Under the pieces are notes generated by a model that was not told where the DNA came from, ran no database searches, and worked only from the letters and a program-made list of their open reading frames with translations. This document shows, in pieces, positions 703 to 31,020 of a stretch of DNA of 41,076 nt; within the stretch, counting starts at the first letter, position 1, and each line of letters starts with the position of its first letter. Source of the DNA: Limisphaerales bacterium (GTDB taxonomy: Bacteria > Verrucomicrobiota > Verrucomicrobiia > Limisphaerales > UBA11358); contig PKZR01000377.1 in assembly GCA_003133815.1 (NCBI GenBank), forward strand, positions 1-41,076, given 5' to 3'. Made by a program: the position numbers and the translations under genes.

Positions 703-1152
703 TTAGAGGGAGTAATTTCCGAGGATTTCCGGCCAAGTGTTAATCGGAGGTGCTGGGGCATGGGTGACGGCCCAGAACTGGCGCAGGGGATGATGGATGA
801 GGGTGATGCTCGATCGTTTGGTTGGGGCAATGTGCCAGCTTTGACCCAGAAAGTCGATCTGGTGGTCGGCGTTGACGCGTCGTTTCAAATGGAGTGCCAG
901 ATGCAGGTTTAGCAGCGTTGCCGGCGGACAGGGACGAGTGGCCGTGCGTCTTTCGGCCAAGGCTTGCTCCCAGGCGGCATTGGGGCTGAGGCTGGTGGTG
1001 CGGCAGAGGGTGGCATTTTGTCGTTCAAGCTCCCGGTTTAGCACGATCTGTGCGGCGGCATAATGGGTGACTTTTTCATAAGCCAGAAGTGCTACCAATC
1101 GCTGTTGGAGGGTTCCTAAAGGGGTCAGTCCCCGGAATTGTAAAAGGGTCAT
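703..1152 (-). CDS. hypothetical protein; possible C-terminal remnant of a DDE transposase/integrase
   Basis: 149-aa ORF. The segment ...NATLCRTTSLSPNAAWEQALAERR..P..LHLKRRVNADHQIDFLGQSWHI...ITLIHHP resembles the region after the catalytic core plus the beta-rich C-terminal domain of IstA/TnsB/Mu-type transposases. No N-terminal HTH or DDE part lies upstream. The resemblance is judged by eye only. Confidence 0.3.
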   Translation of the reverse strand: MTLLQFRGLTPLGTLQQRLVALLAYEKVTHYAAAQIVLNRELERQNATLCRTTSLSPNAAWEQALAERRTATRPCPPATLLNLHLALHLKRRVNADHQIDFLGQSWHIAPTKRSSITLIHHPLRQFWAVTHAPAPPINTWPEILGNYSL

Positions 1153-2132: not shown

Positions 2133-5100
2133 TTATTCAGAGACGGAGACGAGCGTGTTCTTCCGGGTTTCCTCATTGACGCCATCCAGAATTCCTGCCG
2201 CCGCCGGCAGGATTGGACGCAAAATTTCCACGCGTGAATTCAAGCCGATGACGGTGTTGCGCGCTCCGACGGAAACCAACCGCCGATACCAGTCCATAAA
2301 CGCCCGGCTCACGACGATCTCCTCATCCCGGCCGCTAAGTCCCACAACCGGCTGCGAAGACGCCGTTGCGCAGAGAATCTGCGCGGCCACGGCGCGGGGC
2401 GGTCGTTCGCCGTTGATGGTGCGATTCCAAAATGGCAGCGCCGCCACTATTTCCTGGCTCAAAAGCAGCACCTCGGCACGTTGCGCGACGATGCAACCGT
2501 CGTCCGGCAACTGGCGGATAGCTTCGCCCGTCCAGTCACGCGCAAATTCCAAAAATTCAGGTTTGCTCAATGCAACTTCGCCGCCGAGCCGCCACGCAAC
2601 AGCATTGTGGGCGTCGGCCTGCACCAACTCGTTCAATTGTTGCAGCGCTTCTATCGGCCTGTTTTGTGCCGCAAGAAATTTTGCATAGTCCACTTTCAGT
2701 TCCGACAACCTTCCATTTTCCGTCAACCCGGCCTGGAAGGCTTTTTCTGCCCCGTCAGAGTCACCCAGTTTGAGCAGACTCATGGCCAGGCAATGATGCG
2801 GCGCGGCGGTATGGATTTCCTTGTTGATTGGGGCGAGGCTGCGCTGGTGGCGTTTCGCAAGGCAATGCCGCATCTGGTCGGCACCTTCACTGAACCGGCT
2901 GAGTTCAAGATACGACAGCCCAAGCGAGAAATGCAATGTGGCCGTCAATCCACCATGCATCCCGGCCAGCGGCGAGGTGAGAACGCGCACAACTTCGTCA
3001 AACCGCTTCGCCGCTGTCAGCCGCGCACAAAATTGCATCAGGAATGTCTCGCGAAGCTCAGGAACGATTTCGGTTGCAGGTTTCGTTAAGAGAGTATCGA
3101 AAGCCTCCTCGTAGCGCATCAACGCCCCGGCTTCTTGTCCCGACCGGGCCAGTTCCAGGCCCAGGTTCATCAACAAGTGTGGTTCGTCCGGCAATTCCTC
3201 AACGGCGCGTTTCAGGAGATTGAGGTTGCGTTCGATTTTGTTCCGGTCGCGGGTCACTTCGGCCGTGTATCCATGGTGAATGAGAGTTGCGTCGCCAATA
3301 CGGTTTTCCAGTCCCCATTCTGCGCGCTGCACTTCGATGCTGCTGAAAACCTGCTCGTGGACCCGCCCGACATAAAACAGGCCCGGCGCGTTGCGAAAAA
3401 ATCGCGGCACATAGGAACAACCATCCGCCTCGCGGCCCACGTCCACGATGGGAAGACGCCATGCCATTACAGCCGGATTGATCATGGCCAGTTTTAATTT
3501 ATCGAGGCCATCGGCGGATAATTCCTCGTCCGCATCCAGCACCAGCACCCAGTCGCCGGTGGCATGTTCCAAGGCCGCGTTGCGGGCGGCGCTGAAATCG
3601 TCGCACCAGGCAAAGGCATGGATTTTAGCGCCGAATTCCTTTGCAATTTCTACCGTGCGGTCCGTGGAGCCCGTGTCCACAACCACAATTTGTGATGCAA
3701 TCTCGCGGATGGATTTCAAACACTGTCCGAGAAATTTCTCTTCGTTTTTAACAATCAAGCAGACTGACAAGTTGAGGGTTGAGGGTTGAGAGTTGAGGGA
3801 CTCCGGCAGTTTGAGCCACTCCGGTCTGGCACCGCCTTTGAGGCGCTGGTTCAAGAATTTTCTTGCCGGTTTCCAGCCCGGGGCGATGCGGCGGGCGTGG
3901 TCGGCGCAAAGTTTGGCGGACTGGCCGTCGCCGACGGATTGCGCGATTTCTGCAAGCAACAAGAAGGCTTCCGGATGGAAAGGCCGACTGGCTAATGCAG
4001 ACAGTGCGGCTTCCCATGCAGCCCGGAATTTTTTTTGGCGGACCAGTTCCCGGGCCTCGGCCAGATGGCCGGACAGGGCGCACGGTGGCAGGGTGATTTT
4101 AGCCTTTGTGACCGTGCTGGTTTTTGTGGAAGACACTTGCTGCTGTGCAAGCTGGCCGGCACTCATACCAGCGCCGGCGAGTTCGTGGATGCGCCGTGCC
4201 ATGATCGGGGCGGAATTTTGCCAGGAACAAAATTGTTTTGCATGTTGGGCGGCTAGTTGTCCGCGCTGGCGTGTTTCGGCGGGTTTGGCAAATGCCTCGC
4301 GCAAGAACCGTCCGAGTGCGGCAACATCCGGTTCCAGCAGCCAGCCCGCACCGGCCAGCTTCATGCCGCTGATTTCGTGTCCGAATATCTTCCGGTCGGC
4401 AGGAATGCGCCACGCAAAAGTGTCGCGCACAAAATCGTCCGTCGCACCACCGGCGGTGACTATGACGGGCAGACCGGCGGCCATGGCTTCGAGCGCGGGC
4501 AAACCAAATCCTTCACCACGATATGGCAGCACCAGGCAGTCGCACGCCGTGTAAAGACCGGGCAGGGCATCCGGTGGAAGCTCCTGGTTCAGATATAGAA
4601 TTTCCGGCGCATTCGGCTGCAATTGCGCGGCGCGGATCTGCGATTCGAAGGTTTGCCCGGCATAAACCGTCTTGCCGCCAAAATCCTTGATGACGAGGCA
4701 GATGTCGTCTGCATCCGTGAAATTTTCCAGATAAGCTTTGAGCAGCAGGTCCGGCCCTTTGCGGAAGATTGTTCCGCCGACGAAGAGAAATTTGAATTTC
4801 TTTTGCGTGGCCAGTTTCATCGGCGCGACCTGCGGATGAAATTTTTTCAGGTCCACGCCATTGGGCACGACAACCACCTTTTCATCCGGCACACCGGATT
4901 CGACATAAACCCGGCGGACGTATTCGGAAGGCACCCAGAATTGATCAACGCTGGCAGAATCCTTCAACCATTGTTCCGGCAGCGATCCGAATTCCCAAGG
5001 CTGGATGACGACCAGTTTGCCGGTTTGCGGGCGCTTCCAATCCGGCGGCCAGGCGTGGCGGATGGTGACTGCGGCATCCTTTGAAGCGATTGCAGAGATT

Positions 5101-8081
5101 TCGCCGGCCAGATGTTTGAAATCAGGCGACGCCGATGCGCCGTTTGAAATTCGCTTTAAACAGATTTCGGGAGAAGATTGAAGCACACTGGTAAATTCAC
5201 GATTGACGTGCGACAGGCTGCCATGGTCGAGAAAGGATCCGATCCAGTCCACAATTGTGCTGCTAATTTTCAATGATGCGGTGTTGGAGGAACCCGTCTT
5301 TGCAATCGTGGCGGCCCGTTCGACATAATCAGGCCAGCAGTGTTTCAGGAATTTGGCATCCGCCGCCGGAAGCCGGCCGGCCGCTGCTGGATTTATTTCG
5401 GTCAAAGCTTCACTGCAAAATGCAATCTTCCATTCCAAGTCTTGCATTTGAAACAGAAGGTTCCATGTCGCAGCAGCCGGATTGAGCTTTTGATGCAAAC
5501 CCAGTCCTTCGATGAAAGCGGAACGCCGGACGAGGAAGCTCTGCGGAATTGCGTCCAAGATGTTTTCGCGCGCCGGCATCGTCAGTTTTTCCTGCCACTG
5601 GCGCGGCGACGGAAAAACGATGCCCACCTTGGATGACGAACGGATGATGTCCAGCATCGCCACGTCCCAGCCTGTTGACAACGGCGTGTTCCCATCAAAG
5701 AACATGACAAATGGTGAGGGGGAATTATCCACGGTCAAATTCAACTGCTCATTCCAGGTTTGCTGCGGGTGGCGTTCCATTACGTGAAGCCGTTTGATTT
5801 CATGACCGAATTCTTGCGCAATGGCCATCGTTTTCTTGTCATCATTCGCCGCCAGCAGAAAGATTTCACAATTCTTGTTGCGGATTGAAACCGGTTTCAA
5901 CTGGTTCAAGCATTTGCGCAGGGAAACAGTATCGCGCTGGGGTGGAACCACGATCACCAATTCAGGCTGTACTCCATCTTTGTCGCCGCTTGAGTTGCAC
6001 AACAACATTGCCTTGCCGCACGAAAAGAATTCGGAAGCGGCCCGTGGATTTTCCATCTGAAAAACGCCTTGCGGCCAGTGAATGCCGGCTTCGCCGAGAA
6101 TGCGCGCGTAGCCCTGTTTGCGGAGTTTCTCCCGGTCGCTCGCACCGCACATCGGCTTGAAGGAATCGGCGAAGTAATAATCGTCCAGAGGCAATGACCC
6201 AAAAATCGCCAGTTCGGCCTGCGTAGGAAATGCGGCGGCCCGGCCAAGGATGGGAGTGAAACCGCAATCCACATCCTCCAGGATTCGCTGCGACAATTCC
6301 GTCTTGCCATCGAGCAGGCCTGGTTTGGTGGCGCGGAACCAGTGCCAAAGATTTTGGAACAATGCCACACCTTCCTTGAACCGGCGTTGGCGGCGCATGG
6401 TCGCCTCGTCGAAACGAACCTCATCCAATACAGGGGTCACTTTGCCGTCTGGCTGACGGGTATAACCCAAGGTGGTGCCGACGGGCGCGACGAACGATTG
6501 TTCAACAAATGCCGGCGAACGCAGGAAGGCGTGGTAAAGATGTTCCGGTCGCCCGAATGATCCCAGATAATGCCGCACATCCAGCGATTCAAGAATTCGC
6601 GCCGCGGAACCTTCGCCCGTGAGCAAATAGCATCCAACCATGTGGGTACGGTTTGATTCCAAATCGAAGATGCGTTTCAACTGCGTCTGCGCGGAGGCGT
6701 TGTAACCGATGTCGCACAACCCGATGGCATCGCCCGATTCAAGCCATGGACGGAGGTAGTCGAGAACCTTTCGACGTTCTTCTGCGCTCCGGGCCTCGAT
6801 GCGGCTGGCGATCTCGGGGGAAAAAAGAAATTTGGCCAGCTGGAGCACCCGTTCCCGGGAATCGGTTTTTTCTTCGAGCGAAAAGGGCAGATGCCGCGCG
6901 CTTTCCGGCGCAATTCCGAAATGGGCGAGAATGGTTTTGACCGGCAGGGTGGAGCGGCGCACGAGCCAGTCAATCACGCCGTCAGCCGTTAATCCTCCCA
7001 GAGCCGCCAGGGCCGTGGCCTTACGGTTTATGTAGAGCGGTTTTATTTCCAGATCCAAACCCCGCACGTCCGACTCGCATTGTAGAATTTGTGCAAACAA
7101 TTCTCCTTCGCGCATAAATGCGCCGACCTTCCTCACGCCGCTTGCAAGATACTGGTCGCACGCCCAGGTGGCGAAGCGGGTCAGCACCGGACCGAGCAAA
7201 AGGGCGCCCATGCGTCCAAAACTTCCCTCGTCCGTATTTTCCGGAAAAGCACGCGCCGCCAACATGCGTAATGAATTTGCATTGAATACGGGATTTTGCC
7301 CGCCGAGCAGAAATTTTTCGCGCTCAAGGATTGTGTTGGTTTCCTGGGTGGCCTGCTGGTAATGGCATCCGCGCACGCCGGCTTTGCGGGCACCGACAAC
7401 GTCCGGCGCTGGATTGTCACCGATGTGGAGCATTTGATCAGCTTCAAGATTCAACGTTTTAAGTGCGTGCCGGAAAAGGTTGCCAGTGCCCTTGCACACG
7501 TCGGCGTCGCAAGAGGTCAACATTGCATCGAAAATTGACGGATCGAATTGATTGGCTAGCAGGATTCGGCGCAGATGGTCGCCCGAAAAATAAATGTCGG
7601 AGACAACCAAGACGCGCAAGCCGCGTTGCCGGAGATGGTGGATGAAGCCGGCCATGACCGGATTCAACATGCAAAGATCACTTTCCACACCGTGCTCGAT
7701 TTCAACTCCTGCAGCCGGGTCTGTGACGATCGAATCCATTTGCTGGTAGATTTCGCGGATGTGAATGTCTTCCAAGGTCGCATCCTTGAGCGCCTGACGT
7801 TCACGGGTCTTGTATTCCGCGAGACGTCGCAATGTTTCAAAATCATCGGCTGAAATCGTTGAGCGCAGCATCTCCTTTTGCCGCAGGCGGCGGCCCACTT
7901 CACGAAAGGCATCTACGGGTTTTGCGACCAGCCGCCAGACAAGTGTGTCAAAGAAATCGAAGGAAACGGCACGCACGCGACCGGAGCTCAACTCGATTAA
8001 TTTGTCGGCTCGGCACAGCGACTCGTCGTACTGCCACGATGACATCTGGTTCAAAGTGCAAATTTTGTTGTCGGTCGTCAT
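2133..8081 (-). CDS. giant multidomain protein: N-terminal HAD-like hydrolase region, degenerate GT2-like module, GT4 (group 1) glycosyltransferase, TPR, GT2 glycosyltransferase, C-terminal TPR repeats
   Basis: 1982-aa ORF. HAD motif: VSFDFFDTLVWR...HIGDNPAPDV. GT4 motif: FLFVGGTIFRKGPDLLL...PYRGEGFGLPALEAMAAGLPVIVT. GT2 motif: LSVCLIVKNEEKFLGQCLKSI...VVVDTGSTDRT...ARNAALEHATGDWVLVLDADEEL. TPR-like helical repeats flank the GT2 domain. Its ATG overlaps the stop of the upstream methyltransferase (ATGA at 8081..8078). Confidence 0.9.
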   Translation of the reverse strand: MTTDNKICTLNQMSSWQYDESLCRADKLIELSSGRVRAVSFDFFDTLVWRLVAKPVDAFREVGRRLRQKEMLRSTISADDFETLRRLAEYKTRERQALKDATLEDIHIREIYQQMDSIVTDPAAGVEIEHGVESDLCMLNPVMAGFIHHLRQRGLRVLVVSDIYFSGDHLRRILLANQFDPSIFDAMLTSCDADVCKGTGNLFRHALKTLNLEADQMLHIGDNPAPDVVGARKAGVRGCHYQQATQETNTILEREKFLLGGQNPVFNANSLRMLAARAFPENTDEGSFGRMGALLLGPVLTRFATWACDQYLASGVRKVGAFMREGELFAQILQCESDVRGLDLEIKPLYINRKATALAALGGLTADGVIDWLVRRSTLPVKTILAHFGIAPESARHLPFSLEEKTDSRERVLQLAKFLFSPEIASRIEARSAEERRKVLDYLRPWLESGDAIGLCDIGYNASAQTQLKRIFDLESNRTHMVGCYLLTGEGSAARILESLDVRHYLGSFGRPEHLYHAFLRSPAFVEQSFVAPVGTTLGYTRQPDGKVTPVLDEVRFDEATMRRQRRFKEGVALFQNLWHWFRATKPGLLDGKTELSQRILEDVDCGFTPILGRAAAFPTQAELAIFGSLPLDDYYFADSFKPMCGASDREKLRKQGYARILGEAGIHWPQGVFQMENPRAASEFFSCGKAMLLCNSSGDKDGVQPELVIVVPPQRDTVSLRKCLNQLKPVSIRNKNCEIFLLAANDDKKTMAIAQEFGHEIKRLHVMERHPQQTWNEQLNLTVDNSPSPFVMFFDGNTPLSTGWDVAMLDIIRSSSKVGIVFPSPRQWQEKLTMPARENILDAIPQSFLVRRSAFIEGLGLHQKLNPAAATWNLLFQMQDLEWKIAFCSEALTEINPAAAGRLPAADAKFLKHCWPDYVERAATIAKTGSSNTASLKISSTIVDWIGSFLDHGSLSHVNREFTSVLQSSPEICLKRISNGASASPDFKHLAGEISAIASKDAAVTIRHAWPPDWKRPQTGKLVVIQPWEFGSLPEQWLKDSASVDQFWVPSEYVRRVYVESGVPDEKVVVVPNGVDLKKFHPQVAPMKLATQKKFKFLFVGGTIFRKGPDLLLKAYLENFTDADDICLVIKDFGGKTVYAGQTFESQIRAAQLQPNAPEILYLNQELPPDALPGLYTACDCLVLPYRGEGFGLPALEAMAAGLPVIVTAGGATDDFVRDTFAWRIPADRKIFGHEISGMKLAGAGWLLEPDVAALGRFLREAFAKPAETRQRGQLAAQHAKQFCSWQNSAPIMARRIHELAGAGMSAGQLAQQQVSSTKTSTVTKAKITLPPCALSGHLAEARELVRQKKFRAAWEAALSALASRPFHPEAFLLLAEIAQSVGDGQSAKLCADHARRIAPGWKPARKFLNQRLKGGARPEWLKLPESLNSQPSTLNLSVCLIVKNEEKFLGQCLKSIREIASQIVVVDTGSTDRTVEIAKEFGAKIHAFAWCDDFSAARNAALEHATGDWVLVLDADEELSADGLDKLKLAMINPAVMAWRLPIVDVGREADGCSYVPRFFRNAPGLFYVGRVHEQVFSSIEVQRAEWGLENRIGDATLIHHGYTAEVTRDRNKIERNLNLLKRAVEELPDEPHLLMNLGLELARSGQEAGALMRYEEAFDTLLTKPATEIVPELRETFLMQFCARLTAAKRFDEVVRVLTSPLAGMHGGLTATLHFSLGLSYLELSRFSEGADQMRHCLAKRHQRSLAPINKEIHTAAPHHCLAMSLLKLGDSDGAEKAFQAGLTENGRLSELKVDYAKFLAAQNRPIEALQQLNELVQADAHNAVAWRLGGEVALSKPEFLEFARDWTGEAIRQLPDDGCIVAQRAEVLLLSQEIVAALPFWNRTINGERPPRAVAAQILCATASSQPVVGLSGRDEEIVVSRAFMDWYRRLVSVGARNTVIGLNSRVEILRPILPAAAGILDGVNEETRKNTLVSVSE

Positions 8082-8957: not shown

Positions 8958-9869
8958 TCAATCTGCATTTTTGAATGACCGTGGAGAGATCTGCGGATAC
9001 GAGCGTGATTCATGATAAAAAGTTTCGCCGGAACCAAAACCAGCGGCTGGCAGCGCGGGAACGCGTGGGGATCCCGCCGACTTTTTGAGCACAAACGCCA
9101 TGAACCGATTTTCAAAATCAAAATCAACATCCACAACTTCAAAATGATCGTCGCAGGACGCGCAGCCGATGGCCAGCTCGTTCAAAAAACTCAAGTGTGC
9201 CTTGCTGGAATGATTTAGATACGGCAGCGGCAGCAGGGCAATAAGCAAACCCTTTTCGTTTAGAACTTCCCCCATCCGGCGCAGAAGCGCATGCAATTCA
9301 AGGCTGTGTTCCAGCTCATGACGGAAAAAGATAGCCTGGGCTTTCTGCCCAATGCGTTTGGTCCATCGCAAAAAGACTTCCGCGTTGCAACAATGCAAAG
9401 TGTGCGTGTCAAAATTGTAAGTCTGGCGCGCCAGTTCCACCCGATGAGTCGATGACTCACAACCCATGACTGCAAAGCCATGCTGACGCAGGCTTTCCAT
9501 CATTTCACCACGACCGGCACCAAAATGAAAAATGGAACCTTTCGCCGCATGCAATCGTGATTCGTATTGCCTTACAATGGCTTCATAATTTGCTTCCGCC
9601 CATAATGCGTCGGTTTCGAATTCATCTGGAAGAGCGGTTTTGTCAGATTTTACGGGCAACGGGTGTTCGCAAAGAGTGGCTGGTACCGAACTGTCTCCGG
9701 AATCTGGTGAATTCATAAATTGTTTCCGTGTGAGAAGGTTGGCGGCGCTCATAAATTTCCATATTCGTTTCTTCTTTACGGGCGGACCGATTTGCATCGG
9801 CCCGCCCGAGGAAGGAGCCAGCGGTCCCGTCCTATGGACGGACGAAATTCGCTGACCATTTACTGACAC
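8958..9869 (-). CDS. class I SAM-dependent methyltransferase; start uncertain
   Basis: Motif IFHFGAGRGEMMESLRQHGFAVMGCE...IFFRHELEHS...LNEKGLLIALLP. The coordinates are the maximal ORF, which starts with GTG. The first roughly 40 codons coincide with strong RNA hairpins, so a downstream ATG is more likely (9797, 9752 or 9716). Confidence 0.7.
   Translation of the reverse strand: MSVNGQRISSVHRTGPLAPSSGGPMQIGPPVKKKRIWKFMSAANLLTRKQFMNSPDSGDSSVPATLCEHPLPVKSDKTALPDEFETDALWAEANYEAIVRQYESRLHAAKGSIFHFGAGRGEMMESLRQHGFAVMGCESSTHRVELARQTYNFDTHTLHCCNAEVFLRWTKRIGQKAQAIFFRHELEHSLELHALLRRMGEVLNEKGLLIALLPLPYLNHSSKAHLSFLNELAIGCASCDDHFEVVDVDFDFENRFMAFVLKKSAGSPRVPALPAAGFGSGETFYHESRSYPQISPRSFKNAD
9779..9808 (-). 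other. 13-bp GC-rich hairpin with a GCAA tetraloop on the minus-strand RNA
   Basis: The minus-strand RNA is CGGGCGGGCCGAU-GCAA-AUCGGUCCGCCCG. The single non-Watson-Crick position is G-U on the minus-strand RNA but A-C on the plus strand. A second hairpin lies at 9824..9843. Confidence 0.45.
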
Positions 9870-9981: not shown

Positions 9982-10239
9982 TCATAAACCTTTTGAAATT
10001 GTTATTCCCGGTTTTGCAGGCGTTGATTGAGGCAGTTTTGGCAGCGCCACATTTTGACGGGTGAGCGCCTGCTCGTTGCTGCATTGAATTTCTTCGTAAA
10101 CTTCCCGGCGATGCACCGGCACTTCCGCTGGTGCTTCGATGCCGATTTTCACGACGTCGCCCTCAACGCGCACAATCTTCACGTGAATGCGTCCGTCAAT
10201 CACTATGCTTTCGCCGGATTTGCGCGAGAGGATTAGCAT
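9982..10239 (-). CDS. csrA: carbon storage regulator CsrA (FliW-partnered type with C-terminal extension)
   Basis: MLILSRKSGESIVIDGRIHVKIVRVEGDVVKIGIEAPAEVPVHRREVYEEI plus a roughly 30-aa tail. I chose the ATG at 10239 rather than the track start at 10308, which would overlap fliW. Confidence 0.9.
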   Translation of the reverse strand: MLILSRKSGESIVIDGRIHVKIVRVEGDVVKIGIEAPAEVPVHRREVYEEIQCSNEQALTRQNVALPKLPQSTPAKPGITISKGL

Positions 10240-10249
10240 GATCGGGTGA

Positions 10250-10696
10250 TTAGGCGGCCCCGTTGACCGGCAGCGGATGTTGAACGGAGTATTCGACAGC
10301 GTTGGCAATGACGACCTGCTTGGCCACGCCGGTGTTCCGGTTGATAACGATCGGGCCCTTCAAATTGACCGTGGCGTTGCGGGGACCGCGCAATGTGACG
10401 ATATTGTAAACCACTGCGTCATCTGGCGAAGTCAATCCAAGAAAATCCACGTCCGCCTGGGGAATGTCAGGACGGTAGTCCGGCGCAAAATAGAGCGGTT
10501 CGATGACGATGAACGCCAGCGAGGGATTGTTTTTCACCTGCAGCCAGCGGAAAGGCGCTTCGGCAGGTTTGGCGATGAGCAGGAAATTTTTGATATGCTC
10601 AAATCCAAGCAACCCCGCTGGCATCCGCACTTCGCAGCAAGCGGCGGTCTCGGTCGTTTCCGGTTCCTCTATTTCTATCACGTTTGCACTATTCAT
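10250..10696 (-). CDS. fliW: flagellar assembly factor FliW
   Basis: 148 aa. Motifs ...MPAGLLGFEHIKNFLLI...PFRWLQ...SLAFIVIEP...DYRPDI...TVNLKGPIVIN. It lies immediately upstream of csrA. Confidence 0.9.
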   Translation of the reverse strand: MNSANVIEIEEPETTETAACCEVRMPAGLLGFEHIKNFLLIAKPAEAPFRWLQVKNNPSLAFIVIEPLYFAPDYRPDIPQADVDFLGLTSPDDAVVYNIVTLRGPRNATVNLKGPIVINRNTGVAKQVVIANAVEYSVQHPLPVNGAA

Positions 10697-10909: not shown

Positions 10910-11851
10910 TTAAGGCAGTGAATTCAATACAGATTGCTGAAGCTGCAAGATTTGCGAACTGGTCTGGAGAGCGACTTGGTAGGCATTTTGCGCCTGGCTT
11001 AACTGCGTCAGTGTCTGTGCCAAATCCGCGCCGGCAACATTTGAAAGGCTCTGCTGCAATCCGGTTTGTTGTGTTGTGGCAAATGAAGCCGCTGCCTGCA
11101 ACCGCGACTGCGTTGCGCCATTATTTGCAACCTGCCAGATAATGTTGTCGTCGTCCTTGCTCAAATTCGGCGCGTCGATTGTTGTGATGGCGCTTGTGTT
11201 TCCCGATTGCAGATTATTTTGCAGCGAAATTAAATGGTTGAACAAATCCGTGCCGTAGCGGCTGTCGCTTACCACACCGCGCGCGCCGGAACCGCTGTTA
11301 TTTTGGCCGGGCACATTTACAGCCAGGGAAGTATTGTCCGCGATTTCACTCTGCGAAACGCTGGTGTTGCCCTGATACGTGACGGCAGTGACGTTGCCAT
11401 TGGCATCGGTGCTTACCGTAAAAGGGGCCTGACTGGAGTTTGTGCCGCCAAAAACATACTGGCTCCCATTCTGGGTGTTCATTAACTGTGCGGCTTCTTG
11501 GATCAACTGGGTGACTTGGGTGGCGTCCGCCTGTAGCTGCGCCGGCGTGCTGGTGCCGTCCGCAGAGGTGGCGATTTCACTGGCTTTTTCCGTAATGGTT
11601 TGAAGCGAGGTCAGGGCATTGCCAGTGACGGTTGCATTGGTTTGCAGTGTGGAAATGTTTTGTGAGTATTGAGTAACGGCGCTGTTTTGGGCCTGCAAAT
11701 TCAGTGCCTGCGCCATGCCCGCCGGATTGTCTTCCGGAGCTGAAATGGTCTGACCGGTCGAAGCCTGGTTCTGAAGCTGGTATTCCTTCGCGGACAGGAG
11801 ATTCAGCTTGGTGACCATTGAATCCGTGTATGAGGTGCCGGCGATGCGCAT
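10910..11851 (-). CDS. flgL: flagellar hook-filament junction protein FlgL (HAP3)
   Basis: 313 aa. MRIAGTSYTDSM...STGQTISAPEDNPAGMAQAL...QYVFGGTNS..APF, with a flagellin-like N and C terminus. It follows flgK. Confidence 0.85.
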   Translation of the reverse strand: MRIAGTSYTDSMVTKLNLLSAKEYQLQNQASTGQTISAPEDNPAGMAQALNLQAQNSAVTQYSQNISTLQTNATVTGNALTSLQTITEKASEIATSADGTSTPAQLQADATQVTQLIQEAAQLMNTQNGSQYVFGGTNSSQAPFTVSTDANGNVTAVTYQGNTSVSQSEIADNTSLAVNVPGQNNSGSGARGVVSDSRYGTDLFNHLISLQNNLQSGNTSAITTIDAPNLSKDDDNIIWQVANNGATQSRLQAAASFATTQQTGLQQSLSNVAGADLAQTLTQLSQAQNAYQVALQTSSQILQLQQSVLNSLP

Positions 11852-11880
11852 AATTTATTAGGTTTGAAGGTTAATCAAAA

Positions 11881-13305
11881 TCAACCGGTCTTCATATTCA
11901 CCACCGTCGTCAACATCTCGTTGACGGTGGTGATGATTTGCGCCGAGGTTTCGTAGGCCTTTTGGAAGGTGATTAAATTCGCCATTTCCTGTTCCAACGA
12001 AACGCCGCTGACCGAGTCGCGCTGGTTCAACAACATGGTGTTGACGGAATTATAATTGTTCACCTGATCGTTGGCATTGGACAGCGCATTGCCAAAATTC
12101 TCAACGTCCAGAGAGCAGGCGCTGCTAAAGGTCTGATTGTTGAGCGCGCTTACGGACTGGCTTCCCAGCTGCGCCAGCGCCAGCGCGACCGAGTTGTCGC
12201 CGGTGGCATTGGCAACGCCTGCGGCCTGAACCTGCGAAGGATCGGTGAGCAAAGCGGAATTCACGCCGATGTTGCCTGATCCGGTGCCGGTGAAAAAGTC
12301 TGCCCCGGTATTGCCGTTGAGATCGTATCCATTTTTGTAAATGGAGTTGACCTGCGTTATGAGCGTAGAGGCCATCGTATTCAAATTGCTGCGCAGGGTG
12401 CCCAGCGCCCCGTCGCGTGCGTCAATCGTTCCCTGGATGGAACCGCCGGAAAGAGTGAGCGGCGTCGCAGAAGTGGCGGTTTGGACCTGCAACTGGCCGT
12501 TGCCCGGATCATAAGTTGCCAGCGTGTCCGAGAGCTTGCTGCCGGAAACCAGTTGCTGCCCGCCGATGCTGACGCTGATGGTCCCGTCAGAATTTGTGGT
12601 TGTTTGAGTGTTTGTCAATTTTGCGAGATTTTCCAAATCCTGTTCTCGAGAATCAACCATGTCATTGGCCGTGCCGCCGGATGCCGTGGCCTTGGCAATC
12701 TGGCCGTTGAGGCTGGTAATGTCGGAGAGAAGCTGGTTGGCAGAGGTGACGTCATTGCCGACAGATGTGTTAAGCTGGCCATTCAGCACATTTAGATTTT
12801 GAGAAGCCTGGTTGAAACTGGACGCGAGCGACTGCGCCGAGTTGACGAGCGATTGACGCGCCGTCGGGTCGGTGGGGCTGGTCGCCACGCTTTGAAAGGC
12901 GTTGAACAAGTTGTTCAACTGGTCGGACAAATCGGGTGAGCTTGTCGTGCTGGTTGTTGTGCTGCCCGTGCCCGACGCACTCAAATTGAGAAACTCACCC
13001 AATTGTGTCTGGGCGTTTTCCAGCGCGGTCTGCTGCGAATTCCAATAGCCGCCGACGCTTGCCTCGGACTGAATCTGGCTGTTAAGCAACGGGTCGCTGA
13101 CCTGCTGAATCGAAGATGCATCAACACCGGTGCCCTGCAGGCCGAGATTGGTGGGCGTGGGAGTGCTCGTTTGAAGCTGAACCGTTTGCCGGGTATAGGC
13201 AGGATTATTCGCATTCGCGAGATTTTGGCCTGTCACTTCCAAGCTCAACTCCTCCGCCATCATCGAGCGGGCTCCAAGATTCAACGTGTTGAAAAGTCCG
13301 AGCAT
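11881..13305 (-). CDS. flgK: flagellar hook-associated protein FlgK (HAP1)
   Basis: 474 aa. MLGLFNTLNLGARSM...GQNLANANNPAYTRQ at the N-terminus and SGVSLEQEMANLITFQKAYETSAQIITTVNEML at the C-terminus. Confidence 0.9.
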   Translation of the reverse strand: MLGLFNTLNLGARSMMAEELSLEVTGQNLANANNPAYTRQTVQLQTSTPTPTNLGLQGTGVDASSIQQVSDPLLNSQIQSEASVGGYWNSQQTALENAQTQLGEFLNLSASGTGSTTTSTTSSPDLSDQLNNLFNAFQSVATSPTDPTARQSLVNSAQSLASSFNQASQNLNVLNGQLNTSVGNDVTSANQLLSDITSLNGQIAKATASGGTANDMVDSREQDLENLAKLTNTQTTTNSDGTISVSIGGQQLVSGSKLSDTLATYDPGNGQLQVQTATSATPLTLSGGSIQGTIDARDGALGTLRSNLNTMASTLITQVNSIYKNGYDLNGNTGADFFTGTGSGNIGVNSALLTDPSQVQAAGVANATGDNSVALALAQLGSQSVSALNNQTFSSACSLDVENFGNALSNANDQVNNYNSVNTMLLNQRDSVSGVSLEQEMANLITFQKAYETSAQIITTVNEMLTTVVNMKTG

Positions 13306-19626: not shown

Positions 19627-20499
19627 CTAGGTTTTGGCACCTGTGCTCTTGAGCGACTTGAGCATTTCTTCCAATTCATCCGAAGTCGGGCGCAGTTCGC
19701 TGCTCAATCCGCGCCGTCCCAATTCGACGGCAGTGATGGGAGCCATGCCGCTGGCAAAACCAATCACGCAGGCGGCGATGCATCGGGTGAAATCTAAATC
19801 AGCAGCTCCGATGAAATCCAGATTCATTGCAAGCGGATTCACGAAACCGTAAGCGAGCAAAATGCCCAGAAACGTGCCCACCAGCGCGGCGGCCACATGC
19901 TGCCCGATTTGTTCGATGGGGCCGTTGATGGACGCCATGGTGACCACAATGCCCAGCACTGCTGCCACGATGCCGAATCCTGGCATGGAGTCGCCGATTT
20001 TTGTCAGAACATTGATTGGGGCCAGATGGTCTATTTCTTTCCGCTCGATTTCTGCGTCCAGCAGGAGCCGCAACTGGTCCGGTTTGATTTTGCCGTCAAT
20101 AATCGGACGCAAGCTGCTGCAAAGAAATTCGACTGAATTGGTGTTGGCCGCAAAGAGCGGATATTTGTTGAAAACGGGGCTGCTTTTTGGATCGAATACA
20201 TGCTCTTCCAGCGCAATCATGCCGTTGCGTCGGCCCAACAAGAAAAGTTCGTAAAGCACCTTGAGCAGTTCTTCATAGGCGGCGCGGCTGTGTGGTGTGC
20301 CTTTGAGTGACAACATGGTTCCGTGAACGAGATCCACGAGCACCTTGCGCGGTGACATGATGATCATTGCACCCAACGCGCCGCCGCCTATGATGACCAC
20401 CTCGTTGGGATGCATCAGCCAGAAAAGATGGCCGCCGCCCATTACGAAGCCGCCAAAAACCGAAAACACCACGACGAGAAAACCAATTAAAATAATCAT
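19627..20499 (-). CDS. motA: flagellar stator protein MotA
   Basis: 290 aa, four TM segments. ...PGFGIVAAVLGIV...AALVGTFLGILLAYGFVNPLA. Confidence 0.9.
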   Translation of the reverse strand: MIILIGFLVVVFSVFGGFVMGGGHLFWLMHPNEVVIIGGGALGAMIIMSPRKVLVDLVHGTMLSLKGTPHSRAAYEELLKVLYELFLLGRRNGMIALEEHVFDPKSSPVFNKYPLFAANTNSVEFLCSSLRPIIDGKIKPDQLRLLLDAEIERKEIDHLAPINVLTKIGDSMPGFGIVAAVLGIVVTMASINGPIEQIGQHVAAALVGTFLGILLAYGFVNPLAMNLDFIGAADLDFTRCIAACVIGFASGMAPITAVELGRRGLSSELRPTSDELEEMLKSLKSTGAKT

Positions 20500-21347
20500 G
20501 AGCGTTGGAACGATTTGTCTCGGTTGGCCAGTCCGCTCTCAAATCTTTGCAGATAGGAACGGATGGAAAGAATCGCCTGCGAATGAATCTGACAGATGCG
20601 GGATTCGGTCAGGCCGAAGACCTCGGCAATTTCGCGCAGGTGCATGTCTTCGCCATAATATAAAGCCAGCACTTTGCGTTGGATTTCGGGCAAATCCTTG
20701 AGCCTCTCAAAAACCACCCGTTTCAATTCCGCGTTAGAAACTTCTTCGACGGGGCCGGCCTGATTGGGATTTGCCACCACTTCATAAAGGGTGCCTGTCT
20801 CATCACCGTCCGAAGTGCAAACGGCATCCAGACAGATGAACTGGGCGGGGCGGACTTCATCAAGCAACTCGTGATACTCGGCAATCGACATTTTCATTGC
20901 CTTTGCCATTTCCGGATCGTCCGGCATACGGCCCAATTGCTGTTCCAGTTGGTTCATGACTCCCTGGATTTTCCGGGATTTTTCATGAACAGTGCGCGGC
21001 ACCCAATCCATGCGCCGCAACTCATCCAGCATCGCGCCCCGGATGCGCAGCCTCGCATAACCTTCGAACGATGTCCCCGAAGCCGGGTTATAATTTCTCA
21101 AAGCCTGCAACAAGCCAACCAGTCCCGCGCTGTTCAAATCATCGCGGTCAACGTGATCTGGCAACGTCATAGCCAGCCGGTTGACGGCGTAACGGACCAA
21201 TGGCAAATAGCGTTCAACTAATGCGTTTTCAGCAAGACTGTTGGTCTGTTCATGGTAATGCCGCCAGAGTTCCTGTGCGGTAGGATGTTGCTCCGCTCCT
21301 ATCGTCGCAGGGCGTTCTATTTCGGATTCACAACTGCTAGTGCTCAT
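20496..21347 (-). CDS. fliA: flagellar sigma factor FliA (sigma-28 / WhiG family)
   Basis: 283 aa. LVERYLPLVRYAVNRL...DLNSAGLVGLLQALRNYNP...FEGYARLRIRGAMLDELRRMDWVPR...LREIAEVFGLTESRICQIHSQAI. Confidence 0.9.
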   Translation of the reverse strand: MSTSSCESEIERPATIGAEQHPTAQELWRHYHEQTNSLAENALVERYLPLVRYAVNRLAMTLPDHVDRDDLNSAGLVGLLQALRNYNPASGTSFEGYARLRIRGAMLDELRRMDWVPRTVHEKSRKIQGVMNQLEQQLGRMPDDPEMAKAMKMSIAEYHELLDEVRPAQFICLDAVCTSDGDETGTLYEVVANPNQAGPVEEVSNAELKRVVFERLKDLPEIQRKVLALYYGEDMHLREIAEVFGLTESRICQIHSQAILSIRSYLQRFESGLANRDKSFQRS

Positions 21348-21666: not shown

Positions 21667-22662
21667 TTAAAGGCTTTTCAGCGGAAATAAATTTTCTGGT
21701 GATGCATTTATGAATTCACCCGGAATTTTTTGCCCAGCTCCGAGGAAGCGAAGGCTGCAATTTGTGCCGAACACAAAATTCCACAGTTTCACCCGTCGCG
21801 GCTCCTCCTCCAGGTGCGTGAAAATTAAATCCTCGGGTTCGCACCGTTCAAATGCGCGCCATTGTATCAGCAGCGTCGGCATTTCATATGCTGCATTTAA
21901 CACCAGATGCACGCGCGGTGATGGCAAGGATGCGATTTGATCGCGTAAAGCATTTAAAGCGTGAGCGTCAGAGATTTCCACGCCGGGCAGATCCACAAAC
22001 CACAATTCACCGGAGGTTTCAGGCTTCGACCAGAATCGTTCCAACGGCACGCCGAGCATTTCACAGTGAATTGCCAGAAACTCGGCCGTGTTGGCAGTGC
22101 TGGCGTCTAGCCGCCAAACGCGAGCCGAGCTTTCCTCAAGCAGTGAAGACAGAGTCAGCCACTTGCACAATGCCGTAGTTTTGCCAGAGCCGGGTGGCCC
22201 AATAAAGACATGTGGTCGCGGGGTAACGTCGTCCAATAGCGGAGGTTTCAGCCAGAAATGCGACAGCGCGCCTTTGACAATTTTCCATTCCTCGTCGAGA
22301 GAATCTGGCGGCGTATCGCCATGCACGGCGCGGAGATGCGTTTGCAGCCGTTCGGCGTGAACCGGCAGCAGGCCCATCGCTTCCAGCCATGCGATGCTAC
22401 GCCAGCGGTCATTGCTGGACGTAAATTCGCCGCTATTTTCGGAAGAGCTTTTTGGGAAGGAAAATGCATCTGGCTGGGGTGCGGATGTTTTGTCCGGAAC
22501 TCCGGCCACAACCTCAATCTGAACTCGCCTTTGCCAGAGCCTGGCAAATCCCTGTGGCGCGACGGGCCTCACACTCAATACGACGGCCTCTGGACCGAGC
22601 TGCGCATGGATTTGTGCCAGCGCGGCAGCGGCATTGTCGGCTATGAACCGGTGGGTCTTCAC
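21667..22662 (-). CDS. flhF: flagellar biosynthesis SRP-type GTPase FlhF (divergent G motifs)
   Basis: 331 aa with a GTG start overlapping the flhA stop (GTGA). N-terminus: MKTHRFIADNAAAALAQIHAQLGPEAVVLSV. P-loop: GPPGSGKTT. Then VDLPG and LIFTHLEEE...GAGQKIPGEF. Confidence 0.85.
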   Translation of the reverse strand: MKTHRFIADNAAAALAQIHAQLGPEAVVLSVRPVAPQGFARLWQRRVQIEVVAGVPDKTSAPQPDAFSFPKSSSENSGEFTSSNDRWRSIAWLEAMGLLPVHAERLQTHLRAVHGDTPPDSLDEEWKIVKGALSHFWLKPPLLDDVTPRPHVFIGPPGSGKTTALCKWLTLSSLLEESSARVWRLDASTANTAEFLAIHCEMLGVPLERFWSKPETSGELWFVDLPGVEISDAHALNALRDQIASLPSPRVHLVLNAAYEMPTLLIQWRAFERCEPEDLIFTHLEEEPRRVKLWNFVFGTNCSLRFLGAGQKIPGEFINASPENLFPLKSL

Positions 22663-30183: not shown

Positions 30184-31020
30184 TTAGCGCTTGAGATTGA
30201 TCAGGTCCTGCAAAACCTCGTCGCTGGTGGTGACCATTTTGGCGTTGGCTTCAAAATCGCGCTGGGCTGTTATCAAGTCGGACATTTGTGTGGCCAAATC
30301 CACATTGGATGATTCGAGCGCGCCGGATTGTATCTGGCCTAGGCCGCTGGAATTGGCCGCGACAGGCGCAGCCAGCGCTCCGGCGGCAGTGGAGTAGGTA
30401 TAAAGATTGTCACCTTGGCTTACCAAGGCCTGTGGATTGCTGAAGTTTTGCAGCACCACTTGTCCAATGACTCCGCTGGTGCCGTCGCTCAAAGTGGCGT
30501 TAATCTGTCCAGACGTGTTGATGCTATAGTTGGTGAGGGTCGGTGCGGGGCTCGTGGTGTCGTTGAGTGCGGTTATGGCGGTGGCGGTGTTGATTTGGAT
30601 GTCGCCGATGGTGCTGGTGCTGGAGCCGGTATAACCCTGGACGCGTTGACCGTTGGCTGTAACCAGATAACCGCTTGCGTCGAGATTAAATTCGCCGTCG
30701 CGCGTGACGTAGGATGCGCTGGTGGAGGAATCTTTGACAACAAAATAGCCGCTTCCATTGATGGCCATGTCCGCCGTGTTGCCGGTGCTGTTGATAGTGC
30801 CTTGGCTATCGTCTGAGTTGATGGCACCGGTGGTGACGCCTTCACCGACCTGCATGGGATTTGTGCCATTTGACAAGCTTTGGCTAAGCTCGTTCTCAAA
30901 ATCCATGCTCTGGCTCTTGTAGCCGTTGGTATTGACGTTGGCGATGTTGTTGCCGATGACTTGGAGATCCTCCTGAAACTGTTGGAGGCCGCTGACACCT
31001 GTTTGAAGTGAACCGATCAT
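30184..31020 (-). CDS. flgE: flagellar hook protein FlgE (short, Bacillus-type)
   Basis: 278 aa. MIGSLQTGVSGLQQFQEDLQVIGNNIANVNTNGYK...GALESSNVDLATQMSDLITAQRDFEANAKMV. It lies directly after flgD. Confidence 0.85.
   Translation of the reverse strand: MIGSLQTGVSGLQQFQEDLQVIGNNIANVNTNGYKSQSMDFENELSQSLSNGTNPMQVGEGVTTGAINSDDSQGTINSTGNTADMAINGSGYFVVKDSSTSASYVTRDGEFNLDASGYLVTANGQRVQGYTGSSTSTIGDIQINTATAITALNDTTSPAPTLTNYSINTSGQINATLSDGTSGVIGQVVLQNFSNPQALVSQGDNLYTYSTAAGALAAPVAANSSGLGQIQSGALESSNVDLATQMSDLITAQRDFEANAKMVTTSDEVLQDLINLKR

Follow-up and report, generated by a model that had tools for sequence, protein, structure and literature searches.

A 1982-residue protein in a verrucomicrobial flagellar gene cluster joins a ribofuranosyltransferase-type module to a GmaR-like glycosyltransferase: a candidate flagellin glycosylation enzyme

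Introduction

The stretch of DNA analysed here, 41,076 nucleotides of contig PKZR01000377.1 from a Limisphaerales bacterium (the “window” in what follows), raises the question of what is made, and on which acceptor, by a single protein of nearly 2000 residues that is encoded among flagellar genes and that joins several glycosyltransferase (GT) domains in one chain. A preliminary description of this giant open reading frame (ORF) had read it as a glycan assembly line composed of a HAD phosphatase-like region with an uncharacterised extension, three transferase-like modules and two blocks of tetratricopeptide repeats (TPRs). The answer favoured by the present analysis, with moderate confidence, is that the giant protein is a soluble cytoplasmic multi-enzyme flagellin O-glycosyltransferase, which would build a short ribose-containing heteroglycan on its substrate before export.

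The components of this reading are not new in themselves: flagellin glycosylation islands, GmaR-type enzymes and enzymes that use phosphoribosyl pyrophosphate (PRPP) to add ribofuranose to glycans are each known. Recognition of PRPP-dependent ribofuranosyl transfer dates only from 2022-2023, and the founding paper on its two domains, the glycan phosphoribosyltransferase (gPRT) and the phosphoribose phosphatase (PRP), is reportedly that of Kelly et al. in 2022. The biochemistry of the family has since been described (PMC10299916, PMC11231755, PMC11127046). Neither the fusion of such components into one chain of about 2000 residues nor PRPP-dependent ribofuranosylation of a protein was found in the literature searched.

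Extent and layout of the giant protein

The gene is, as had been described, a single ORF, and its product is divided into the following parts, listed from the N-terminus.

2133..8081, minus strand: the giant ORF, 1982 amino acids (aa), ATG start, uninterrupted, without a predicted membrane segment
7332..7976, minus strand (aa 36-250): PRP domain, a HAD-type phosphoribose phosphatase, assigned from Pfam PF00702, invariant columns and alignments with Bcs3 CrpP and 7SHG
6012..7331, minus strand (aa 251-690): gPRT domain, PRPP-dependent glycan phosphoribosyltransferase-like, assigned from an AlphaFold2 model, Foldseek, and profile and motif alignments
5247..5984, minus strand (aa 700-945): GT2-like domain of GT-A fold, probably non-catalytic, assigned from an AlphaFold2 model, Foldseek, a sub-threshold Pfam match, column counts and substitution rates
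4197..5246, minus strand (aa 946-1295): GT4 domain (GT-B, retaining-type), assigned from Pfam PF00534, PF13692 and PF13439 and invariant columns
4077-4196, minus strand (aa 1296-1335): poorly conserved Ser/Thr/Gln-rich linker
3867..4076, minus strand (aa 1336-1405): short TPR-like block 1, TPR_16 at 22 bits, below threshold
3132..3776, minus strand (aa 1436-1650): C-terminal GT2 domain of GmaR/SunS type, assigned from sequence and profile matches to the Protein Data Bank (PDB), TIGR04195 and invariant columns
2136..3131, minus strand (aa 1651-1982): TPR/helical-repeat domain 2 and C-terminal tail, a candidate substrate-recognition domain, assigned from Pfam TPRs and weak matches to O-GlcNAc transferase (OGT)

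Four of these domains (PRP, gPRT, GT4 and the C-terminal GT2) are conserved catalytic domains, and they are accompanied by the degenerate GT-A domain and the TPR blocks. Domain searches and structure prediction bear out the earlier domain calls, in that the HAD, GT4, C-terminal GT2 and second TPR assignments lie above Pfam or NCBIfam thresholds and the GT2-like domain is recognised by its fold; the motifs that had been quoted (FFDGNT, EGFGLPALEAMAAGLPVIVT and DADEE) are all present. The match to MAF_flag10 (PF01973) that a Maf-type enzyme would give is absent among Pfam matches at E<=1, and Pfam gives no match to a Glyphos_transf or SH3 domain.

A protein identical to the product of the giant ORF (P0001) is present on 3 contigs in public metagenomes, and full-length homologs of 1860-2030 aa, which are 46-82 % identical to the giant protein, form about 50 clusters at 90 % identity. 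Since both an identical protein and full-length homologs exist, the gene is genuine and is neither an assembly nor a frameshift artefact. The named sources of the homologs are Verrucomicrobiota, and isolates are among them (Limisphaera ngatamarikiensis and Fontisphaera persica); public annotation calls these proteins only “glycosyltransferase” or “HAD hydrolase”. In the family alignment 15-28 % of the columns in the catalytic domains are invariant, and the pairwise ratio of nonsynonymous to synonymous substitution rates (dN/dS) is 0.06-0.24 in the gPRT, GT4 and C-terminal GT2 domains, as compared with about 0.6 in the linker between domains. A Kyte-Doolittle scan found no membrane-spanning hydrophobic segment (the maximum 19-residue hydropathy, 1.57, falls within a core helix of the GT4 domain), and on this prediction the giant protein is most likely cytoplasmic.

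Three observations on the collection of relatives may be recorded here. One ortholog (L023:10001-15921, downstream of fliW-csrA) is split into ORFs of 849, 227 and 918 aa; natural fission was considered and rejected, since the contig is of nanopore type and a frameshift error is likelier. A 3420-aa protein from Fibrobacteria (P0066) was set aside, because it has only GT4 modules in common with the giant protein and no flagellar context. Three verrucomicrobial loci (L007, L009 and L011, with 63-86 % identity in the N-terminal module) carry the title “uncultured Bifidobacteriaceae bacterium”, which is probably a mislabel.

The N-terminal ribofuranosyltransferase-type module

The N-terminus has been found, with high confidence, to be a PRP-gPRT-type module, which is to say a bipartite PRPP-dependent ribofuranosyltransferase. 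The description of this region as a HAD phosphatase-like domain followed by an uncharacterised extension was right about the HAD domain (aa 36-246, PF00702, 52 bits, cut-off 26.4); the extension is the gPRT, and the two together form an enzyme of known type. Pfam, which has no model for the gPRT, gives no match in that part, and the transferase that was thereby missed has neither a GT-A nor a GT-B fold and would use PRPP as its donor.

The evidence for this assignment comes from sequence comparison, structure prediction and motif alignment, which agree. In a search of PDB sequences, aa 39-361 of the giant protein match residues 384-717 of Bcs3 (phmmer E 2.9e-11), the capsule polymerase of Haemophilus influenzae type b. 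Residues 374-591 of Bcs3 constitute the HAD phosphatase CrpP, and residues 592-1036 constitute CriT, whose catalytic core is PRTase-like and which transfers ribose-5-phosphate in a PRPP-dependent manner (PMC10299916), so that the match runs through the HAD domain into the transferase. When a profile of 46 homologs is compared with the PDB, Bcs3 is found at E 1.1e-21 and 7SHG, a “Ribofuranosyl transferase” from Thermobacillus composti, at E 2.7e-16 over profile positions 39-485. The AlphaFold2 model of aa 1-700 (pLDDT 90.5, pTM 0.91) is aligned by Foldseek with Bcs3 (8a0m/8a0c) over 668-701 columns, with TM-scores on the query of 0.61-0.64 and E of about 2e-21, and with 7SHG over 625 columns at E of about 9e-21; the next-best matches are HAD-only structures at E of about 5e-6.

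The catalytic and PRPP-site residues of the module are invariant or nearly so in 46-53 homologs. Motif I of the phosphatase is of the CrpP type, F-D42-F-F-D45-T46, and aligns with the FDIFDT of Bcs3 (nucleophile D386) and of 7SHG; motifs II-IV are represented by S161, K197 and D222/D227, which are invariant together with motif I across the 46 homologs. The set of PRPP-site residues of Bcs3 used for comparison comprises S678/R679/D680, S707/R708, and E818 with the loop 821-825. R324-E325-G326 of the giant protein aligns with S678-R679-D680 of Bcs3 and SREGE of 7SHG, N352-R353-K354 aligns with S707-R708 of Bcs3 and SRKAT of 7SHG, and D457-I-G459-Y-N-A-S463-A-Q465 aligns with DVGWKGTIQ of 7SHG. 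Equivalents of Bcs3 R712 and E874 were not mapped onto the giant protein in the residue-level alignments.

The literal form of the preliminary description, in which the HAD domain is a phosphatase for a precursor sugar phosphate, the extension has a function of its own that is unknown, and the GT2-like, GT4 and GT2 modules each add a sugar, has in its favour that sugar-nucleotide pathways do include HAD phosphatases. It is opposed by the end-to-end alignment of the HAD domain and extension with bipartite ribofuranosyltransferases and by the retention of the motifs specific to them. By analogy with those enzymes, the HAD domain would most likely act on the glycan after transfer, by removing the 5-phosphate. 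A more specific identification of the HAD domain as a KdsC- or NANP-like sugar-phosphate phosphatase, prompted by the cytidylyltransferase found near some relatives, was rejected because of the CrpP-type alignment, because the domain and the gPRT make up a single fold unit, and because there is no cytidylyltransferase in the window. For annotation purposes, the roughly 450 residues after the HAD domain, for which there is no Pfam model, should be labelled gPRT.

The module belongs to a large family. An exhaustive phmmer search with aa 1-700 against 1.84 billion representatives yielded 9832 matches at E<=1e-3, and the matches at E<=1e-30 form 532 clusters at 50 % identity; it was this search that revealed the family size, since a word-indexed homolog search with the N-terminal module alone gave few distant matches. 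Most matches are to proteins of 650-950 aa, the stand-alone enzymes usual for the family, and span the module completely. In a few larger fusions (1557-3299 aa) the module is C-terminal, and proteins of about 2000 aa that carry it N-terminally account for only a handful of the 50 %-identity clusters.

The degenerate central domain

The presence of a GT2-like domain without a clear DxD motif between the ribofuranosyltransferase module and the GT4 domain had been proposed on the basis of sequence inspection, and the fold has been upheld while the implied activity has not. Pfam detects only a weak GT2 stretch at about aa 703-827, below threshold (19.5 bits against a cut-off of 23.3). The AlphaFold2 model (pLDDT 86.8) has 324 Foldseek matches in the PDB at E<=0.001, all GT2-type, with identities of 9-15 % and a best E of 3.8e-10, among them PcManGT, BcsA, K4CP and GtrB, so that the model has clear GT-A architecture.

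Conservation in this domain differs from that in the other transferases. Not one of its 246 columns is invariant in the family. The first DxD position (D796, in the D796-G-N798 of FFDGNT) is Asp in 30/46 homologs and R, Q, P, E or G in the remaining 16, and the second, position 798, varies among G, S, D and N, in contrast to the C-terminal GT2, where D-A-D-E is found in 46/46. The domain is undetectable by tblastn in three Limisphaera orthologs, and its pairwise dN/dS is 0.26-0.38. Because of these conservation, DxD and dN/dS data, the domain appears to be constrained as a fold and not as an active site; it is probably catalytically inactive, and most likely a structural spacer with a degenerate GT-A fold.

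The genuine GT-A fold and some purifying selection are what the literal reading can claim here. Given the lack of any invariant residue, the replacement of the DxD Asp in a third of the homologs and the failure to find the domain in the Limisphaera orthologs, together with the evidence from the N-terminal module, that reading is very improbable. The count of three transfer steps nevertheless survives with a different membership: the set consists of the gPRT, the GT4 and the C-terminal GT2, and the GT2-like domain is not part of it. The best reading of the giant enzyme is thus one with three active transfer steps and one dephosphorylation step.

The GT4, C-terminal GT2 and repeat domains

The two canonical transferases that had been recognised from the sequence, a GT4 and a GT2, are both confirmed. 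The GT4 domain matches PF00534 at aa 1004-1291 with 66 bits (cut-off 26.4) as well as PF13692 and PF13439, the glutamates of its EX7E pair (E1190...E1198) are invariant, as are 21-24 % of its columns, and it appears from these features to be an intact transferase.

The C-terminal GT2 (aa 1438-1647, PF00535, 98 bits) is the most conserved domain of the protein, with 28 % invariant columns, including D1469 and D1516-A-D1518-E1519. Its best relative in the PDB is GmaR (22ao), at E 6.8e-30 with the single sequence and 5.7e-42 with the profile, followed by the peptide S-glycosyltransferases SunS (7e-20) and 7msk (2e-16). The motifs IVKNEE, VDTGSTD, DFSAARN, DADE, HEQ and HxGY are common to it and to GmaR. 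The SunS-family model TIGR04195 matches at 8.5e-22 with 77.6 bits, which is far below its equivalog cut-off of 350. By its sequence, the domain is assigned to the protein-modifying GmaR/SunS subgroup and is predicted to be intact. GmaR is the flagellin O-GlcNAc transferase of Listeria monocytogenes, in which the GT domain is followed by TPRs that have been proposed to recognise flagellin (PMC9638930); it is the relevant homolog, and the comparison with FlmG drawn earlier holds as an analogy only.

The claim of two TPR blocks stands in full for the second block. When scanned alone, aa 1656-1890 exceed the Pfam thresholds (TPR_2 29.1, TPR_19 27.6 and TPR_14 26.9 bits), and PDB searches give weak matches to the TPRs of OGT. 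Block 1 remains sub-threshold and is nonetheless conserved, with W1356, R1366, P1367, P1370 and E1371 among its conserved columns.

The relationship to GmaR brings with it the possibility of another target or a mainly regulatory role, in which the TPR/C-terminal region would bind a flagellar regulator such as FliW or CsrA, or in which pilins or other surface proteins would be glycosylated. GmaR itself doubles as an anti-repressor, the giant gene always follows fliW-csrA, both of which are regulators, and TPR-containing GTs that modify pilin exist (PMC9306852). The match to GmaR, however, is limited to the 204-aa GT domain, with no counterpart of the MogR anti-repressor domain in PDB sequence and profile searches. 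The four conserved enzymatic domains moreover point to a mainly catalytic role, and the other recurrent neighbours of the gene are flagellin, fliD and fliS. An alternative of this kind is therefore considered improbable.

Genomic context in the window and in relatives

The flagellar neighbourhood that had been noted is more extensive than a few adjoining genes. A single flagellar cluster on the minus strand fills nearly all of the 41-kb window, containing a sigma-54 activator gene, flgBC, fliEFGHIJ, fliK, flgDE, fliLM, fliOP, fliR, flhBA, flhF, fliA, motAB, flgFGAHI, a rod-binding flgJ-like gene, flgN, flgK, flgL, fliW and csrA. After csrA, two methyltransferase genes and then the giant ORF close the cluster.

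10910..13305, minus strand: flgL (10910-11851) and flgK (11881-13305), hook-filament junction genes
10250..10696, minus strand: fliW, flagellin-binding partner of CsrA (Pfam FliW, 8.7e-36)
9982..10308, minus strand: csrA (Pfam CsrA, 1.3e-23)
8958..9869, minus strand: methyltransferase 1 (Methyltransf_23/11/25), with same-position orthologs in loci L004, L007 and L009
8078..8968, minus strand: methyltransferase 2 (Methyltransf_24), true start probably the Met at 8968 or 8953

The TGA of methyltransferase 2 overlaps the ATG of the giant ORF (ATGA), and this overlap suggests that the two are translationally coupled. Promoter and terminator scans of the window gave counts at or near the shuffle expectation, the one match worth mention being a sigma-70-like sequence upstream of fliW (10839-10810), which is a consensus match only. 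Rfam and tRNA scans of the whole window gave no matches.

Homologous loci allow this linkage to be followed. Besides the window, the comparison takes in 15 verrucomicrobial loci for which upstream flank is available and one more, L005, on a contig that stops 3 kb upstream of the gene. The pair fliW-csrA lies 0.7-5 kb upstream of the giant gene on the same strand both in the window and in 15/15 of the flanked loci, and the fliW-csrA(-flagellin) linkage is kept over a range of 46 to 86 % identity, even where the other flagellar genes lie elsewhere. In seven loci a flagellin gene directly follows csrA, at the position occupied in the window, L004 and L007 by methyltransferase genes. The order in Fontisphaera persica is fliW-csrA-flagellin-cytidylyltransferase-(Capsule_synth-like)-giant gene-flagellin-fliD-...-fliS, and in Limisphaera a block of fliW-csrA-flagellin-like-methyltransferase-giant gene stands apart from the remaining flagellar genes. 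The flagellins that adjoin the giant gene are 266-270 aa long with a Ser/Thr cluster in the central loop. The earlier proposal of a single-polypeptide multi-transferase linked to flagellar genes is thus supported by both domains and synteny.

The genes between csrA and the giant gene vary. Methyltransferases occupy this interval in the window, L004, L007, L009 and L013, and in most other loci the giant gene is immediately preceded by genes for a CTP_transf_3 cytidylyltransferase (to which an RraA-like aldolase domain is fused in some cases) and for a protein of about 440 aa that weakly resembles Capsule_synth/Glyphos_transf (e.g. L002:7323-10004, L003:7864-10004, L005:855-2971). This pair recalls the cytidine diphosphate (CDP)-alditol/TagF-like CroT arm of Bcs3 and, by that analogy, suggests a phosphodiester-linked or ulosonic-acid unit in the glycans of those species. 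Within the fusion itself the ends (PRP-gPRT and TPR-GT2-TPR) are constant and the middle is swapped: L005:2993-8782 (P0059) and L012 have a bona fide GT2 (PF00535, 174 bits, aa 943-1161) in place of the GT4, which indicates cassette swapping. Flagellin glycosylation islands typically show this pattern, in which a variable cassette accompanies a conserved core next to flagellin genes.

These neighbours bear on the alternative that the giant protein is a synthase or polymerase of a capsule, extracellular or O-antigen-like polysaccharide, of the Bcs3/WbbB type, with a lipid- or glycan-linked acceptor and a flagellar position that means nothing. Characterised PRP-gPRT enzymes all make polysaccharides, often as part of multi-module polymerases, and the Capsule_synth/Glyphos_transf protein and cytidylyltransferase beside many relatives bring to mind CroT and CDP-ribitol. 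Unfused relatives also lack flagellar neighbours. In L024:4527-11764, a distant relative, the partnership of modules is kept though unfused: a GT2 of 469 aa comes after a PRP-gPRT protein of 910 aa, and the gene for a GT2-TPR-GT4 protein of 956 aa is transcribed divergently. The alternative must be set against the fliW-csrA linkage conserved across the range of identities given above, the absence of a membrane-association segment, and the fact that the best-conserved GT has its nearest relatives among enzymes that modify proteins and peptides. Furthermore, no ABC transporter, Wzx/Wzy, polyprenyl-phosphate transferase or polysaccharide export genes are present in the window or in the flanks examined. 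On balance a polysaccharide synthase is unlikely.

Some further features of the window stand apart from these questions. Downstream of the giant ORF, positions 1-2132 contain no Pfam-supported ORF and trivial repeats only, at a GC content of about 0.51 as compared with 0.55-0.57; the sole ORF there (703-1152, minus strand, 149 aa) has no family matches, and relatives have two-component or HD-GYP genes, or flagellin-fliD-fliS, at this position. Elsewhere in the cluster, flhF (21667-22662) is followed by fliA (20496-21347) after a 320-nt gap, with no flhG/MinD-like gene apparent between them, and the hook-type protein encoded after flgD (30184-31020) has rod N-terminal, D1 and C-terminal domains in only 278 aa, which is short for FlgE.

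Proposed function

The favoured reading, that of a cytoplasmic flagellin O-glycosyltransferase, can be stated as a sequence of steps, all of which would precede export by the flagellar type III system. The C-terminal GmaR-like GT2 would add the first sugar, which by analogy with GmaR may be a beta-linked N-acetylhexosamine from a uridine diphosphate (UDP)-sugar, to Ser/Thr in the central loop of a short flagellin (about 267 aa) docked by the flanking TPR domains. The GT4 would then add a second sugar from a nucleotide-sugar, the gPRT would transfer beta-ribofuranose-5-phosphate from PRPP, and the adjacent PRP would strip off the 5-phosphate after that transfer. The two upstream methyltransferases, taken to be translationally coupled, would probably methylate the glycan. 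Flagellin as the acceptor is predicted from synteny and homology, and the order of the GT4 and gPRT/PRP steps, the donor sugars and the role of the methyltransferases are likewise predictions. A cytoplasmic site of action would accord with the published requirement that PRP-gPRT enzymes act in the cytoplasm in order to reach PRPP (PMC11127046).

Several observations weigh against this proposal. The window has about 40 flagellar genes and no flagellin (fliC) gene among them. The flagellin-like genes of the Limisphaera loci (L001:5721-6524, L014:5928-6524, L017:5808-6431) are poor in Ser/Thr and very divergent, being 25-34 % identical to the flagellin of Fontisphaera; each may represent a regulatory or atypical flagellin paralog. 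The profile search detects no similarity between the TPR regions and the TPR/antirepressor part of GmaR. Outside the fusion family, five planctomycete PRP-gPRT genes (25 % identity) have no flagellar neighbours within 10 kb, nor does L024 over the same distance; the contig scan that recovered these five, along with only the close verrucomicrobial relatives, relies on exact peptide patterns of the N-terminal module and does not amount to a full phylogenetic profile. The precedent of the characterised enzymes, all of which act on polysaccharides, counts here as well. Finally, the literature searched contains no ribose-containing flagellin glycan, and nothing relevant on PRPP in flagellin glycans or on flagellin glycosylation in Verrucomicrobiota.

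A variant of the proposal retains flagellin as the acceptor and treats the giant enzyme as a polymerase, in which the GT2 primes flagellin and the GT4 and PRP-gPRT then alternate to give a repeating hexose-ribofuranose chain. It is modelled on the Gal-Ribf polymer of Klebsiella O4, in which ORF6 and ORF5 alternate, and it is distinctly unlikely; if it were true, the filament would bear a polysaccharide coat that is made wholly in the cytoplasm and leaves the cell by way of the flagellar type III system.

The flagellin O-glycosyltransferase reading has consequences that go beyond this locus. A PRP-gPRT module hard-wired to a GmaR-like GT in a flagellar operon predicts a new class of protein O-glycan with beta-ribofuranose, and PRPP as a new donor for protein glycosylation; if the prediction is correct, even a flagellin O-glycan with just one ribofuranose would represent the first PRPP-dependent protein glycosylation in the literature searched. 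With four catalytic domains and a pseudo-GT spacer in one chain, the fusion offers a compact model of the spatial organisation of successive protein glycosylation steps. It also displays modular evolution: swapping between species affects the middle GT cassette and the sugar-modification genes nearby, and the ends of the protein stay the same. The prediction is directly testable in cultured motile hosts (Limisphaera spp., Fontisphaera persica); each of the three described species of Limisphaera has an ortholog and owes its motility to a single flagellum (PMC13608581).

Comparison with known systems

The closest counterparts of the N-terminal module are the PRP + gPRT units termed bipartite Ribf-GTs (Ribf, ribofuranose), the described examples of which make polysaccharides (PMC11231755, PMC11127046). 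They comprise CrpP-CriT of Bcs3 (8A0C/8A0M), 7SHG of T. composti and ORF5/ORF7 of Klebsiella pneumoniae O4/O7. The giant protein resembles them in the order of HAD phosphatase and gPRT, in a module length of about 650-700 aa matched over the full fold, in its predicted cytoplasmic location, and in the FDxFDT nucleophile motif and the PRPP-site motifs SR(D/E)G, (S/N)RKA and DxGxxx(S/T)xQ. It differs in having only about 15-18 % identity to the solved enzymes, in its fusion to a GT4 and a GmaR-like GT2-TPR, and in its flagellar operon; the known bipartite Ribf-GTs build capsules, O-antigens and teichoic-acid-like polymers, not protein glycans. Unlike Bcs3 in particular, it lacks the TagF-like alditol-phosphate transferase CroT, the SH3b domain and the membrane-binding helices, and there is no group-2 capsule export locus in the window.

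Other enzymes that carry several catalytic modules in one chain, such as WbbB, WbdA/WbdD and K4CP, share with Bcs3 and the giant protein the presence of helical regions between modules. These enzymes, Bcs3 included, extend polymers that are lipid-linked or primed on a glycolipid, and they are coupled to ABC transporters, machinery that was not found here.

As regards the C-terminal half, GmaR offers the nearest parallel, since it combines a GT2 with long identical motifs (E 6.8e-30), TPRs after the GT, a flagellar gene context and short flagellins. The FlaA of Listeria is also short. GmaR differs in being a protein of 637 aa that adds a single GlcNAc and has the MogR anti-repressor domain, while the giant protein adds an upstream TPR block and three domains. 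The SunS/ThuS enzymes (7MSN, 7MSP, 7MSK; TIGR04195) belong to the same GT2 subfamily (E of about 1e-20), have helical repeats after the catalytic domain and act on peptide side chains, namely Cys in the ribosomal peptides called glycocins; no glycocin precursor or immunity genes are found at the present locus, and the TIGR04195 equivalog cut-off is not reached.

At the level of the locus the appropriate comparison is with flagellin glycosylation. Maf and FlmG are flagellin systems for nonulosonic acids, and the likeness to FlmG extends only to the layout of TPRs and a GT. Flagellin glycosylation islands with separate enzymes include CD0240-0244 of Clostridioides difficile and the fgt genes of Pseudomonas aeruginosa and P. 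syringae. The present loci are like such islands in having a variable cassette of GT, methyltransferase and sugar-activation genes beside flagellin, fliD and fliS, with a content that varies by species. They are unlike them in that no Maf domain was detected and in that the transferases, one of which is predicted to use PRPP, are fused in one polypeptide of about 2000 aa.

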